The position numbers were made by a program, and so were the translations under genes. Of a stretch of 64,000 nt of DNA, positions 28,071 through 43,965 are shown in pieces (position 1 is the stretch's first letter; each line of letters starts with the position of its first letter). Source of the stretch: Fidelibacterota bacterium (GTDB lineage Bacteria > Fidelibacterota > Marinisomatia > Marinisomatales > Marinisomataceae); assembly GCA_965212055.1 (NCBI GenBank), contig OZ243041.1:484149-548148 (forward strand), in the 5' to 3' direction. The notes beneath the pieces were generated by a model, which saw only the letters and a list, made by a program, of their open reading frames with translations, was not told where the DNA came from and did no database searches.

Positions 28071-28575
28071 GAGACAAAGAATAAGAGTAAATAAAAGAAT
28101 CTATGCAGACGAAATCCGTTTGATTGATAACAATAAAAACCAAGTAGGGGTTGTCAAAGTCCCCGAGGCATTAAGGTTGGCAGAAGAAGCTGGCCTTGAT
28201 TTAGTCGAAATCTCACCGAATGCCAAACCACCTGTGTGTAAAATAATGGACTATGGGAAATACAAGTATGAAGAAAAGAAAAAAGCACAACAGGCTCGTA
28301 AAAATCATCATATAATTAAAGTAAAAGAATTAAGAATGAGACCTAATATTGGAGATCATGATTTAGAGAATAAATTAAAAATGGGAAGAAAATTCCTAAA
28401 TGAGGGTTGTAAGCTCAAATTGAGCATCATGTATCGTGGTCGAGAAATGTCCAGACAAGATTTAGGTGATGCACTTTTAGAAAAAGTTATGTTAAATTTA
28501 AGCGAAGTTGCAGAAATGGAGAAAGATAGTCCTATGATGGGAAGAAAAAAATCTATAATATTAGCTCCTAAATAA
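28066..28575 (+). CDS. infC: translation initiation factor IF-3 (probable AUU start)
   Basis: ..[52 protein letters not shown].. is typical IF3. AAAGGAG (28051-28057) sits 8 nt before in-frame ATT 28066, which overlaps the thrS TAA. In-frame ATG 28048 is the alternative. The track start 27985 lies deep inside thrS. Confidence 0.85.
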
Positions 28576-28585
28576 GGGTATTTTA

Positions 28586-28780
28586 ATGCCAAAACAGAAA
28601 ACAAGAAAAAGCGTATCAAAACGATTTAAACTGACAGGAAGCGGAAAAGTTAAACGCAACCGTGCAGGGCATAAGCATATGTTAATCCGTAGAGATAAGG
28701 ATACAAAACGCGCAGCAAAGAAATCAATCCTTGTTGCACCTTCTGACAAGAAAAAAGTCATAAAAATGATGGGAAAATAG
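28586..28780 (+). CDS. rpmI: 50S ribosomal protein L35
   Basis: [29 protein letters not shown], 64 aa, in the infC-rpmI-rplT context. Confidence 0.95.
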
Positions 28781-28787
28781 GTTAACA

Positions 28788-29135
28788 ATGCCAAGATCTA
28801 ATAGTTCAGTTCCAAGACATAGACGACATCGTAAGACTGTCAAATTAGCCAAAGGATACTTTGGTGCAAGAAGTCGTAATTATAAAGCGGCTAAAGATGC
28901 GGTGACAAAAGCAGGGTTGTATGCATATAGAGATCGAAGACAGAAGAAACGTCAATTTAGACGTCTGTGGATTATACGTATTAATGCTGCTGCAAGACTG
29001 AATGGATTATCATATTCAAATTTTATATATCTATTAAAGGAGAAGGGCGTTGATTTAGACAGAAAGGTATTAGCAGATTTAGCTGTTAATAACCCATCTG
29101 TTTTTGAAGACCTCGTAAAATATCTGAAAAAATAA
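28788..29135 (+). CDS. rplT: 50S ribosomal protein L20
   Basis: MPRS...[20 protein letters not shown]...[23 protein letters not shown], 115 aa. Confidence 0.95.
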
Positions 29136-39139: not shown

Positions 39140-39730
39140 ATGAGCCTTATTGATCCTATTCATACGATTGAAGATGCCGAAACCAAAGAGCTGGTAAAAT
39201 TCTTTAATGAAACCTTAGGATTTTGTCCAAATTCGGTTCTAACCATGCAAAAAAATCCAGCCCTTGCCAAAGCATTTATCAACCTCAATATGGCAGTGAT
39301 GGAGAATCATGGATCTTTAACCAGTGAGTTTAAACGTTTGATTGCATTTATTAGTAGCAATACCACCGGATGTAGGTATTGTCAGGCCCATACAATTAGA
39401 GCAGCGGAACGATACGGCGCAAGCAAAGAACGCCTTGACAATATTTGGAATTTTGAAGAAAGCGATTGTTTTTCTGATCAAGAAAAAGTCGCGCTTAAAT
39501 TTACTAGGGAAGCAAGCAAAGTTCCTGTAGCAACCACCAAAGAACTGGAAGAGGAGTTAAAGCAACATTGGAGTGAGAATGATATCATTGAAATTATGTC
39601 CGTGATTGCTTTATTTGGCTATTTAAATCGATGGAACGATGTGATGGGGACTTCTTTGGAAGAGGATGCGGTAGAATCCGCCAATCAATATCTCAAAGAT
39701 AAAGGGTGGGATATTGGAAAACACCATTAA
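39140..39730 (+). CDS. AhpD-like / carboxymuconolactone decarboxylase-family peroxidase-related protein
   Basis: TGCRYCQAH (CxxC) in an AhpD-like helical context. ATG 39140 starts 2 nt after the nitroreductase stop. The track start 39056 is inside the upstream gene. Confidence 0.7.
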   Translation: MSLIDPIHTIEDAETKELVKFFNETLGFCPNSVLTMQKNPALAKAFINLNMAVMENHGSLTSEFKRLIAFISSNTTGCRYCQAHTIRAAERYGASKERLDNIWNFEESDCFSDQEKVALKFTREASKVPVATTKELEEELKQHWSENDIIEIMSVIALFGYLNRWNDVMGTSLEEDAVESANQYLKDKGWDIGKHH

Positions 39731-39732
39731 AC

Positions 39733-39762
39733 AAAAAAGGCACTTTTCAGTGCCTTTTTTTT
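39733..39762. terminator. bidirectional rho-independent terminator between convergent genes
   Basis: AAAAAA-GGCACT-tttc-AGTGCC-TTTTTTTT: perfect 6-bp GC-rich stem flanked by A and T runs. Confidence 0.8.
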
Positions 39763-39811
39763 ATGAATAAACGTATCCAAGAGAATTGTAGCCGTCAGAG
39801 AAGGATGCCGT

Positions 39812-40633
39812 TTATTCTTCTTCATCAACAATGATTCGTTGTTGTTGAATGCCTGTAGATGCAATTTCATTAGTAGTACCTTCTTTTGTGCCTCTTATGA
39901 GATCAAAAGATACTTGTGTGTCTTCATCAGCTGCATATACTTTGATATGAGATCTGTCTACTCTTTCTTCAGTATCCACAATTGATTGATTGTCTTCATC
40001 AACTGTTACTACGTTTGCAACAACAATAGTATCTTCATAGAAGTAATTGGTGGTATACAATCCACCTTCCCATTCAAATACTTGTCCCGCACCTAAGTCA
40101 CTACGTGCTTTTAAGAATGCCACTTTAAACGTGTCGCCTTCATAGCTTTTTACAAGAGCCCAATCGATTGTTTTAAGTTCACTTTTATCTTCCAAGATTT
40201 CTTCATACCATAAATTGGTGGTATACATCATTCCTTGCCACTTAAAGGCTCTTCCAGGTCCTAACATTCCGCGTGCTGCAGCAAAGGCCTCTGGAAAGGT
40301 TTCTTGATCAAAACTGTAATGTTCTGGTTCAGATGATTCTGTCAACAAACTAGGATCATTCTTTGGTGCAGTTACACCATCGATCAGATTGCTTTCTGCT
40401 GTAGGTTTTATTTCTGTCACCCCACCAGCTAGTGTTCGTAATTCAGGGTTACCATTATCTTCAGTCGCATCTACTGTAGTTGCTACTTCTTGCGAAACAA
40501 CAGAGTCGGTTTCTGAGAGGGCAGAGCCTAGTTGGATATCTTTGGTGGAATTCATGAATAAGATTAAAAGCGTTACTCCAAGAGCAACCGCTCCAAATGT
40601 GATTTTTTCAAATATGCTATACATTATTTTCAT
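39812..40633 (-). CDS. membrane-anchored protein with an internally duplicated about 40-aa module, unknown function
   Basis: N-terminal TM anchor. YSFDQETFPEAFAAARGMLGPGRAFKWQGMMYTTNLWYEE and KSYEGDTFKVAFLKARSDLGAGQVFEWEGGLYTTNYFYED share 20/40 identities by hand alignment. Confidence 0.45.
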   Translation of the reverse strand: MKIMYSIFEKITFGAVALGVTLLILFMNSTKDIQLGSALSETDSVVSQEVATTVDATEDNGNPELRTLAGGVTEIKPTAESNLIDGVTAPKNDPSLLTESSEPEHYSFDQETFPEAFAAARGMLGPGRAFKWQGMMYTTNLWYEEILEDKSELKTIDWALVKSYEGDTFKVAFLKARSDLGAGQVFEWEGGLYTTNYFYEDTIVVANVVTVDEDNQSIVDTEERVDRSHIKVYAADEDTQVSFDLIRGTKEGTTNEIASTGIQQQRIIVDEEE

Positions 40634-40804
40634 CTCCGTCTTTGTACCATCTTTTTCGCTTTCCCGTAGTAGTATATGTCTTATAAATGGAATGGTTTCA
40701 AGTTTTTTTGTAAATTATCCTAGAATATAAAAAGTGTAGACACATAACTGAGGAGTTTGAAATGTCTGATAACAAACATGAAGAGCAAATCCTGATTAAG
40801 GTAT

Positions 40805-40832
40805 TTTGCGCATAATATATATTATGTATAAT
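40805..40832. other. dif: candidate dif site (XerC/XerD chromosome-dimer resolution site)
   Basis: TTTGCGCATAA TATATA TTATGTATAAT versus E. coli dif GGTGCGCATAA TGTATA TTATGTTAAAT gives 23/28 identical. The spacer and 9/11 of the right arm also match B. subtilis dif. It lies at the gene-orientation switch of the window. Confidence 0.6.
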
Positions 40833-40839
40833 TGATGAG

Positions 40840-41547
40840 ATGAATAAAAATAGACTAGTAAAACAAACAAGATGTGCCCTATTACTCTACATTGTAGCAA
40901 TATTTGTAGCAATGCCCCTTTATGCTGGCGGAACCTATGCTATTAAAGATATTGCTACCTTCTATAATTTCTGTACTAATTTTCTAAGCGATCTTGGAAG
41001 AACTACTAGTCATTCTGGTGATTTAAACTTCTTTTCTAGTTTTTTATTTAATAATGCTATGGTTATTTTCGGAATCTTTTATGGTCGATTTATATACCAT
41101 ATGACAAATTATCTTAATGATATAGATCAAAATATAGCTTCTTTGGCCAAAATTGCATCAATAATCGCCTGTTTTTCTACAATTGGGGTTGCATTAACCC
41201 CCGCAGATGTTGATTCCTTATATCTTGCTCATATCCTGTTTGCTAACAATATTTTCTATTTTGGGTGTTTTGGGACTGCTCTTTTTGGATATTTATTTCT
41301 GAAATCAAATGCAATTGATAATAAATATGGTTGGATACTACTATTTTATTCCTTTGCTACCATTGGTTACATCTGTGTAATGTGGTATGGTCCAAAACCA
41401 TTCTTCGTATTAGCCGATGGATCAATATCGCCATCAGCCCATGGATTAATGGTGCAAGCCTCTGCACAAAAGATCATCTTCTTAATTGGATTCTTCTCGA
41501 ATTGGATGACGGTTAAAGCAATAGGTTTACTTGACAACAAAGTTTAG
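40840..41547 (+). CDS. polytopic membrane protein (possibly DUF998-like)
   Basis: Six or so hydrophobic helices. The FLSDLG motif resembles DUF998 (weak, from memory). The 3' end overlaps leuS by 21 nt (convergent). Confidence 0.4.
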
Positions 41548-43965
41548 TAATCTATTCGGTATATAGATTGTTTTTACAATAGATCCTTTTGAAGTATAAT
41601 TTTCTACTTTTTCAAGCGCTAATGCTGCATCCACAGCAGTCGTTTCATCAGAATCTTTTGCTAAAGTAATATTTGCCCTCAATTTGCCGTTTACTTGTAC
41701 CACAACTGTCACTTCATCAGTCTGAGTTAGTTGTTCATCGTAATCAGGCCAATTTTCGTATGCAAGAGAGTCTTTATTGCCTAATAATGACCAGAATTCT
41801 TCCGAAAGATGTGGCATAAATGGTGATGATGCTTTAACAAGATCTACGATCAAATCTCTTGAAATCTTGTTACATTTTTGTAGATGATTGCAATAAATCA
41901 TTAATTGAGAAACCGCAGTATTAAAGTGAAGATTTTCAATATCATCCCCCACTTTTTTAATGGTAGTATGATGGAGATGTAATGTTTCTTTGTCTGGAGT
42001 AACATCTTCTGCTATTTTTGAGGACAACTTCCCTTCTTCATCGACAATAATAGCCCATAATTTGTTGACAAATCTGTAACATCCTTGTAATCCTTTAGTA
42101 TTCCATGGTTTTGATTTATTGAGTGGTCCCATAAACATTTCATATAATCGCATTGAATCGGCACCGTATTCATCGATAATATCATCAGGGTTAACAACAT
42201 TTCCTCTTGATTTACTCATTTTGGCTCCATCATCTCCTAAAATCATTCCCTGATTGTATAATTTTTTAAAGGGTTCTTTCGTTGATACAAGACCTAAATC
42301 GTGTAATACATGGTGCCAAAATCTTGAATATAATAAATGCAGTACAGCATGTTCTTGTCCTCCAATATATAAATCAACTGGCATCCAGTATTTTTCTTTC
42401 TTTTTAGACCATGAATTATCTCTATTTAATGGGTCAATAAAGCGCAAATAATACCAACAGGAACCAGCCCATTGAGGCATCGTGTTTGTTTCTCTAAGTC
42501 CAACAATATTACCCGATGAATCTTTTATTTCAACCCAACTTTCGATAGTAGAAAGTGGAGATTTTCCATCATCTGATGGTTTGTAATTTTCTACTTCTGG
42601 CAACATAACAGGGAGATCTTCTTCTTTAACCGTTTCTAATCCGTCATCTGTATGAATAATTGGAAAAGGTTCTCCCCAATAACGCTGTCTAGAAAACAAC
42701 CAATCTCTTAGCTTATAATTGACTGCTCCAGTACCTAATCCTTTTTTTTCAATATATTGAATTGTTTTCTTGATAGCTTTTTCAACTGTTAATCCATCAA
42801 TTGAGAGTGTATCTGGGTGTGAAGAATTCACAATTATAGCATCACCTTTGTCTATAAAAGCTGCTTTTGTAACGTCTCCCCCCTTCACCACTTCTTTAAT
42901 TGGTAAATCATATTTTTTTGCAAACTCCCAATCACGTTCATCGTGTCCAGGAACCGCCATAATTGCTCCTGTACCATAACTAATAAGTACATAGTCAGCA
43001 ACCCAGATTTCCATTTCTTCTTTACTAAGAGGATTAATAGCATAGGATCCTGTAAAAATACCTGTTTTATCTTTATTAATTTCTGTTCTATCAAAGTCAG
43101 ATTTTTGCTGTGTTTCTTTAATATACTTTTCTACTGCTTTTTTTTGCTTTTCTGTGACAATTGTATCAACAAGTGGGTGTTCCGGTGCTATGACCATATA
43201 TGTTGCTCCAAATAACGTATCTGACCTAGTTGTGTACACTTTAATAGGTTCTTCTGAAGAATCTTTGATAGAAAAGTTGATTTCTACTCCTTCGGATTTT
43301 CCAATCCAATTTTTCTGGAGTTCTTTAATATTCTCTGGCCAATCTAAATCTTCAAGCCCATTTAATAAAGATTCAGCGTATTTAGTAATTTTTAATACCC
43401 ATTGCTTCATTGGAGTTCGATAGACAGGATGTCCTCCGATATCTGATTTCCCATCTACCACTTCTTCATTTGCAAGTACAGCACGTAGTTCTGGACACCA
43501 ATTAACCGCTACTTCTTCTTGGTAAGCAAGTCCTTGGTTATATAATTGAAGAAAAATCCATTGGGTCCACTTATAATATTCTGGGTCAGTAGTATTAATC
43601 TCTCTGGACCAATCATAAGAAAATCCAAGTTGATTAATTTGTCGTTTAAAATTTTGAATATTTTGTGAAGTAGTAACGCTAGGGTGAGTTCCTGTTTTAA
43701 TTGCATATTGTTCTGCTGGAAGCCCAAATGCATCCCATCCCATAGGATGCAATACATTAAATCCTTTCATACGTTTAAATCGTGCAATAATGTCGGTTGC
43801 AACATAGCCAAGAGCATGTCCTACATGTAATCCTGAACCGGATGGATAAGGAAACATATCTAAAACGTAGTATTTTGGCTTACTGTCTTCTGAGGTTAAA
43901 AAAGTATTATTATTTGTCCAGTATTCCTGCCATTTTGGTTCAATTTTTTTATGATTGTAACTCAA
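41527..43965 (-). CDS. leuS: leucine--tRNA ligase
   Basis: [18 protein letters not shown] (HIGH), KMSKSRGN (KMSKS), CP1 editing domain. 812 aa. Confidence 0.95.

Follow-up and report, generated by a model that had tools for sequence, protein, structure and literature searches.

The chromosome dimer-resolution site dif has been predicted in 16 phyla, at positions that correlate with shift-points of GC skew, and the predictions include a dif of the proteobacterial profile in 14 Bacteroidetes strains (PMC3025954, Kono et al. 2011). In other groups, dif has been revealed by mobile elements located at it; the IMEXs (integrative mobile elements that exploit Xer) include CTX-phi, TLC-phi, the gonococcal genetic island and Legionella LME-1 (PMC9765430). 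The SAR406 or Marinimicrobia bacteria (Marinisomatota, now Fidelibacterota; PMC11652737) were represented by no genome in the survey of Kono et al. (PMC3025954), and a literature search for dif in Marinimicrobia or in this phylum found no paper. The DNA considered here, referred to as the window, is a stretch of 64,000 nucleotides of contig OZ243041.1 (assembly GCA_965212055.1) from a Fidelibacterota bacterium. It contains, at positions 40805–40832 of the + strand, a 28-bp sequence that is very probably the chromosomal dif of this bacterium, lying where two replichores meet. A dif at the terminus is an expected feature; this site is also the fixed right border of a strain-variable segment.

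The site and the replication terminus

The 28-mer, TTTGCGCATAATATATATTATGTATAAT, has the canonical 11-6-11 geometry: a putative XerC-binding arm, TTTGCGCATAA (40805–40815), a central region, TATATA (40816–40821), and a putative XerD-binding arm, TTATGTATAAT (40822–40832), all given for the + strand. The two 11-bp arms are of partial dyad symmetry, sharing the inner dyad CATAA/TTATG, and their sequence is consensus-like; the outer six bases differ between the two arms, as in E. coli dif. The site had been proposed as a dif in an earlier sequence-only reading of this DNA. It reads exactly as given there, and a recount of its matches yielded the same figures: 23/28 positions are identical to E. 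coli dif (left arm 9/11, centre 5/6, right arm 9/11) and 20/28 to B. subtilis dif (left arm 5/11, centre 6/6, right arm 9/11), for which only the spacer and the right arm had been counted before. The asymmetry of the outer arms points to binding by two different proteins rather than by a homodimer. By analogy with the XerCD-dif-FtsK system of E. coli, a XerC-type recombinase would bind the left arm and a XerD-type recombinase the right arm, in a reaction that would depend on FtsK. Homologous recombination would join sister chromosomes into a dimer, the two copies of dif would meet at the division septum, and strand exchange across the 6-bp centre would restore monomers. In single-recombinase Xer systems (XerS/difSL, XerH/difH, XerL), the geometry of the site is atypical and the recombinase gene usually lies beside it. 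These systems were rejected for the present locus, given the canonical geometry of its site, with two different outer arms, and its neighbours (leuS and the genes of two orphan proteins, one a membrane protein and one of 273 amino acids), none of which is a recombinase.

The match stands apart from the rest of the window. When the window was simulated 300 times with a first-order Markov model, the top score against E. coli dif ranged from 17 to 22, and a score of 23 was never reached; the second-best match in the window itself scores 19/28. The 28-mer has no second copy in the window, even with three mismatches allowed, and no meaningful second copy of either half-site was found in the 64 kb. 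Related loci, checked with up to 14 kb of flank, contain one site each, so that the search for further copies called for by the sequence-only reading ended with a single site in every one of these sequences. A B. subtilis dif-like match at 40715 (19/28), at the left border of the island described below, was discarded, as by hand count it is only 16/28 identical to the window's own site, which is at chance level.

The site lies at a switch in nucleotide composition. Between about 4 kb and about 39.6 kb, the + strand has a GC skew of +0.05 to +0.21; further on, the values are −0.04 to −0.27, with the change of sign at 39.6–41 kb. Since coding-strand composition distorts the raw skew, third codon positions were used. 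Their cumulative G–C maximum lies at 40,562, and the change-point of the skew at these positions (GC3 skew) has its maximum likelihood at 40,571–40,622, with a 2-lnL support interval (40,058–40,959) that includes the site; the sequence-only reading had predicted an extremum near 40.8 kb. The two genes flanking the site both run counter to their replichore and yet bear the skew of their own side: on the + strand, GC3 skew is +0.20 in the left gene and −0.29 in the right gene (G:C 42:28 vs 24:41; Fisher p = 0.0097). Mutational skew thus flips between 40,633 and 40,840, whatever the coding strand. As the skew is positive on the left and negative on the right, with genes converging, the switch is that of a terminus, not of an origin. 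Positions 1–40804 form the end of one replichore, in which + is the G-rich leading strand and carries almost all genes, and positions 40833–64000 the end of the other, in which − is the G-rich leading strand and carries all genes from leuS on.

Conservation of the site and weighing of the evidence

Immediately around the site, a gap of 206 bp (40634–40839), already noted in the sequence-only reading and borne out by a map of open reading frames (ORFs), separates the 273-amino-acid ORF (39812–40633, −) from an ORF of 235 amino acids encoding a conserved multi-pass membrane protein (F1; 40840–41547, +), which is followed by leuS (leucine–tRNA ligase; 41527–43965, −), the first gene of the right-hand replichore. 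By exact protein matches and the genome scan, the window belongs to SAR406/Marinimicrobia. One relative, L005 (GCA_045560335.1), is 98.8% identical to the window. In a more distant one (L104), the metagenome-assembled genome of another Marinisoma species ('Candidatus Neomarinimicrobiota ... Marinisoma'), nucleotide identity over leuS and its neighbours is 76%; the sequence TTTGCGCATAATATATATTATGTATCAT is found at the same place, directly upstream of the F1 homologue and leuS, and, apart from the site, the intergenic DNA cannot be aligned with that of the window. The closed Fidelibacterota chromosome CP070638 (L056; 51% GC) has ATTGCGCATAATATATATTATGTATAAT about 125 nt past the 3' end of leuS, without F1. 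Linkage to leuS is common to the window, L104, L177–L185 and CP070638, and the site occupies an orthologous position in these lineages.

This conservation was also apparent when loci were fetched with two F1 homologues 37–38% identical, and not with the site itself. A dif-like site was present 2–9 nt upstream of F1 in 9/9 of these loci, and in all nine the skew is positive on the left and negative on the right, as at a terminus. None of them departs from the XerD arm TTATGTATAAT; the changes are limited to the XerC arm and the centre (TTTACGCATAA, TTTACGTATAA, ATGTCGCATAA-CATATA and the centre TATAGT). Overall, the site is kept at 26–28/28 in genomes of 31–51% GC, while the adjacent non-coding DNA diverges. 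It could be argued that an AT-rich palindrome has arisen by chance close to a pair of convergent genes, in a genome with a GC content of only 33% and in a window in which other sequences match dif sequences at 19–20/28. Such an origin, already at odds with the simulations above, is refuted by this degree of conservation, and its probability can be considered practically nil.

A 20-nt core of the site, GCGCATAATATATATTATGT, was scanned across a genome collection and found in at least 119 matches from species genomes, nearly all of them Pseudomonadota (Halieaceae, SAR86, Pelagibacteraceae, PS1 and others); a few of the matches listed, including that of CP070638, come from other phyla. Among the listed matches with at least 1.5 kb on each side (n = 75), 33 have a positive skew on the left and a negative skew on the right and five have the opposite arrangement, and the left skew exceeds the right skew in 56/75 (p = 2e-5), a pattern that is unchanged by reverse complementation and hence distinguishes a terminus from an origin but says nothing of the orientation of the site. 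The exact 28-mer is present in Alphaproteobacteria of the PS1 clade (L038, from the genome scan, and L134, L141, L143 and L144), between genes for an ABC-transporter permease and an MBL-fold hydrolase located on the same strand, with both flanks conserved. No recombinase gene was found beside the 28-mer in this clade, its neighbours encoding ABC-transporter permeases, the MBL-fold hydrolase and TatD.

In all SAR406 loci that have F1, the ATG of this gene lies 2–9 nt from the XerD arm, and the gene is head-on to replication. F1 is an orphan membrane protein of about 225–235 amino acids, homologues (P0001–P0042) included, with the invariant motif NF(L/I)SDLGR...H and no match in Pfam or NCBIfam. 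The promoter of F1 must be located within the site or further out, and F1 may, as a result, be co-transcribed with the genes of the island to the left. The 28-mer might be chiefly the promoter or operator of F1, its likeness to dif being an incidental AT-rich dyad symmetry, and the constant distance from the start codon, the end of the XerD arm in TATAAT, which resembles a −10 box, and the palindromic character of the site, which is frequent in operators, would all fit such a role. However, CP070638 has the site beside leuS without F1, the 20-nt core recurs among different neighbouring genes in over 100 unrelated genomes, with a preference for skew switches of the terminus type, the skew change-point of the window coincides with the site, and a consensus promoter scan detected no sigma-70-type promoter there. 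A purely regulatory origin is thus extremely improbable, and regulatory and dif roles are not mutually exclusive.

Several observations weigh against the identification of the site as dif. The maximum of the all-site cumulative skew falls at 39.8 kb, 1 kb off the site, an offset attributed to the counter-oriented 273-amino-acid gene. In the PS1-clade genome L038, which has the exact 28-mer, the skew over the local 8 kb, −0.11 on the left and +0.03 on the right, does not have the pattern of a terminus. The uniqueness of the site is established for the window and about 0.4 Mb of related loci, not for the whole replicon, and no xer (tyrosine recombinase) or ftsK gene is present in the 64-kb window. 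Given the position of the site directly upstream of the conserved F1 gene, conservation alone is also compatible with a regulatory role. Finally, the skewed words for which a change of polarity had been sought do reverse at the site: to its left, the +:− count of GAAGAAG and its relatives is 37:5, and to its right it is 2:34, but this polarity is fully confounded with the coding strand, which is followed even by the copy inside the counter-oriented 273-amino-acid gene. GAAGAAG was therefore set aside as a candidate for the FtsK-orienting polar sequences (KOPS), for which it provides no independent evidence; E. coli KOPS (GGGNAGGG) and B. subtilis SRS (GAGAAGGG), with one occurrence each, are essentially absent. 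The skew, the uniqueness of the site within the window and its conservation in other SAR406 lineages nonetheless support the view, put forward in the sequence-only reading, that this is a dif at a replication terminus.

The gene layout, derived from a simple ORF map, Pfam and NCBIfam scans and the precomputed annotation of matching contigs, shows the same convergence. An unbroken + strand run (9369–39730) comprising thrS, infC-rpmI-rplT, pheST, zapA and folD and continuing to a nitroreductase gene and an AhpD/CMD-family gene (39140–39730, +), the last conserved gene on this strand, meets an unbroken − strand run (41527–63951) of leuS, msrA, pnp, rpsO, ribF, truB, rbfA, infB, nusA and further genes. 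The switch in orientation described earlier is thereby confirmed, with the − run traced to 63951. A − strand ORF called at 28561–28794, within the + run, was considered spurious, as rpmI fills that gap on the + strand. The two runs are separated in part by a hairpin at 39733–39762, a bidirectional intrinsic terminator that ends the conserved left-hand core. Missed by a simple consensus terminator scanner, it was confirmed by folding (−14.3 and −16.2 kcal/mol on the two strands; z −4.8 and −5.1). No tRNA or Rfam elements were found near the site. The strand bias in the window (1–64000) is extreme, with about 58 of 61 called genes co-oriented with replication. These include the essential operons infC-rpmI-rplT-pheST and nusA-infB-rbfA-truB-ribF-rpsO-pnp and four aminoacyl-tRNA synthetase genes; these genes lie less than 25 kb from the terminus, an unusual placement for highly expressed genes.

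The strain-variable segment to the left of the site

Two contigs (L001 and L002) that are 99.2–99.8% identical to the window on the leuS side lose homology with it at 40799–40802, the outer edge of the XerC arm, each running on into different DNA. Three different left flanks are, thus, joined to one identical 28-mer. Homology is lost at 40679 in L003 and at about 40722 in L158 and L166; L004 and L003 diverge from the window at 39730–39734, and L006, L008 and L009 end at 39823. The segment of about 1 kb between the terminator and the site (39763–40804) is strain-variable, and in related populations it is a restriction-modification/defence island.

A metagenome scan for the exact 28-mer yielded 43 loci, 35 of which are whole contigs; the site lies no more than 111 nt from the contig end in 24 of these 35, which means that short-read assemblies of SAR406 break systematically at this locus. 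When these loci and L038 are oriented by the site, the start of an F1 homologue and then leuS follow on the right, with the exception of the five PS1-clade loci and three others. The DNA immediately to the left is different in almost every contig and, in most, codes for restriction-modification and further phage-defence functions. The ORFs of the left flanks (n = 87) encode at least 20 DNA methyltransferases, together with HsdR, GmrSD, AIPR, Z1, Schlafen/DndB-like, HNH, GIY-YIG and MazG-like proteins, and the loci fetched with F1 have the same restriction-modification/defence content on this side. Every sizeable ORF of the island is encoded on the + strand, and many end with a TAA stop that directly adjoins the XerC arm. 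Contigs from different lineages have gene families in common, and many unrelated alleles occur inside one species.

In the window, the island is cut down to about 82 nt (40723–40804), a stump with a ribosome-binding site and a mini ORF. The mini ORF (40763–40816, +; 17 codons, MSDNKHEEQILIKVFCA) follows a strong GAGGAG ribosome-binding site and ends at the TAA of the XerC arm. No homologue of it was found among the island genes of the other loci, and it probably remains from the 5' end of an island gene that has been deleted. The island is lacking altogether in the lineage of L177, in which CutA1 and a K+ channel gene precede the site and F1 and leuS follow it. In L002, L145, L162 and L177, one of the two genes nearest to the site on the left encodes a K+ channel (Ion_trans, or Ion_trans_2 with TrkA domains), and this gene may be the ancestral left neighbour of the site. 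The only sizeable gene in the variable segment of the window is that of the 273-amino-acid protein (39812–40633, −). It belongs to an orphan family (F30) with homologues among the outer left-flank ORFs of L104 (280–702, −) and L132 (9343–9831, +), characterized by a membrane anchor at the N terminus and a domain FxxAFxxARxxLGPxxxFxWxGxxYTTN, present once or twice, with no Pfam match. In exact-sequence look-ups, neither this ORF nor an over-long ORF call for the CMD gene was on record.

A further element accompanies the site in at least 16 SAR406 loci (L130, L131, L132, L142, L145, L147, L157, L159–L162, L164, L165, L167, L168, L170, L171) and is absent from the window. This accessory motif, xCTGTT-N5-6-xCTGTTTATCAGx', precedes the XerC arm by 0–5 nt on its left; in its strict form (14 loci), it occurs nowhere else in those loci. 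Its proximal inverted repeat forms a hairpin of 5–6 bp, 95% paired, with compensatory changes in three of five pairs and a covariation of 0.433, as against 0.160 in shuffled sequences (0/500); the distal, upstream direct copy also co-varies.

Several known types of mobile element were considered as the source of the variable flanks. No second dif-like site of at least 21/28 was found in up to 14 kb of left flank of the related loci, the best matches (19–20/28) being at the chance level for AT-rich DNA, nor did 163 kb of left flanks show any enrichment of half-sites. A classical IMEX would leave a second dif-like site and, none having been found over these distances, was rejected. An integron platform consists of an intI integrase with an adjacent attI and cassettes that each end in attC. 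It was rejected because no integrase is present among the best 25 of the 62 families matched by left-flank ORFs (n = 87), no repeated cassette-end sites were seen, and the hairpin motif occurs once per locus, at the site. Three contigs classified as viral in IMG/VR bear the site or a near copy: L173; L174, with ATTGCGCATAATATATATTATGTATAAT beside phage-like genes (GP88, primase-helicase and PD-(D/E)XK nuclease); and L175, with the exact 28-mer and a second ATTATGTATAAT 19 nt downstream. These contigs may be Xer-exploiting phages or mis-binned host DNA. Together with hypervariable left flanks that abut the site exactly, they would be in keeping with a role of the site as attB for integrase-bearing mobile islands, the left flank being the integrated element, rather than as an Xer dimer-resolution site. 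Such a role is contradicted by the lack of an integrase among the families just mentioned, by the search of up to 14 kb of left-hand DNA, in which no further att-like or dif-like copy was found, and by the L177 lineage, which has the site but no island, as well as by the sequence itself, which is of the dif family and placed at a skew switch; an attB of this kind is highly unlikely.

With the site taken as dif, the turnover of the island is most economically explained by insertion and deletion and by replacement through homologous recombination, between flanks that are conserved; such replacement by itself also gives rise to sharp borders. An exchange mediated by Xer at the site may contribute. 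Among loci of one species (with an identical F1 protein), the XerC arm and centre have 4/17 segregating sites, the XerD arm 0/11 and the right flank 54/1200 (4/17 vs 54/1211 for the remainder, p = 0.0067), and it is because of this polymorphism and of the three viral contigs that a part for Xer is kept open; the polymorphism of the XerC arm could equally reflect a generally weaker constraint on XerC arms. A more specific scheme, tentative and rather unlikely, is that dif in SAR406 is a single-site docking platform for the exchange of restriction-modification/defence blocks, in which one junction would come from an Xer crossover within the site and the second from homologous recombination in the left-hand core, the hairpin motif serving as an accessory element. 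Such a platform would differ from IMEXs and pdif modules, since these leave two sites behind, and would make island turnover a by-product of the dimer-resolution machinery, not of dedicated integrases.

Significance and comparison with known systems

In the dark ocean, SAR406 is one of the uncultured groups of bacteria with the highest abundance. The site provides this group with an anchored replication terminus and a dif consensus, in which the XerD arm TTATGTATAAT is invariant across lineages, of use in orienting and closing metagenome-assembled genomes, in coverage-based estimates of growth rate and in explaining assembly breaks at this locus. The adjacent defence island is an easily located hotspot of strain variation for studies of phage–host dynamics in this phylum, and, if Xer does take part in its turnover, a further way for mobile DNA to exploit dimer resolution would be added to those already known. 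The parts that merit a further look, and are modestly interesting, are the dif-anchored defence island and the hairpin motif.

The closest described counterpart is the dif of E. coli and other proteobacteria, with which the site shares its length of 28 bp, the 11-6-11 arrangement, 23/28 positions, the CATAA/TTATG dyad on the inner side and the asymmetry of the outer arms; by hand count, the self-symmetry of the arms is 7/11 here and 6/11 in E. coli dif. It is also like E. coli dif in being present in a single copy (here, within the window and the related loci), in lying at a GC-skew shift-point and in having an XerD arm more conserved than the XerC arm. The differences concern the host, which belongs to the Fidelibacterota and not to the Proteobacteria, the centre, which is TATATA, as in the dif of Firmicutes, rather than TGTATA, and the end of the XerD arm (TATAAT vs TAAAT). 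The dif sites predicted in Bacteroidetes, Chlorobi and other non-proteobacterial phyla are similar in that they combine a likeness to the proteobacterial or Firmicutes profile with a position near a skew shift-point (PMC3025954).

As in IMEXs, foreign DNA is joined exactly at dif, and presence or absence in the population reveals the site. IMEXs, however, lie between dif and another dif-like site, whereas up to 14 kb on the left of the present site yielded none, and the genes of the island described here are of the restriction-modification/defence type rather than phage or conjugation genes. The pdif modules of Acinetobacter are likewise accessory-gene modules at XerC/D-type sites, but they are bracketed by inversely oriented pairs of sites and are mostly plasmid-borne, whereas a single chromosomal site, with no internal sites, is involved here (PMC11705084, PMC12907356). 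Loci replaced by homologous recombination, such as those for capsule, O-antigen and the restriction-modification 'defence hotspots', resemble the island in their sharp borders at conserved flanks and in the many alleles per species. They differ from it in that one border of the island is a recombination site, not a gene, and that in many alleles a stop codon abuts this site.

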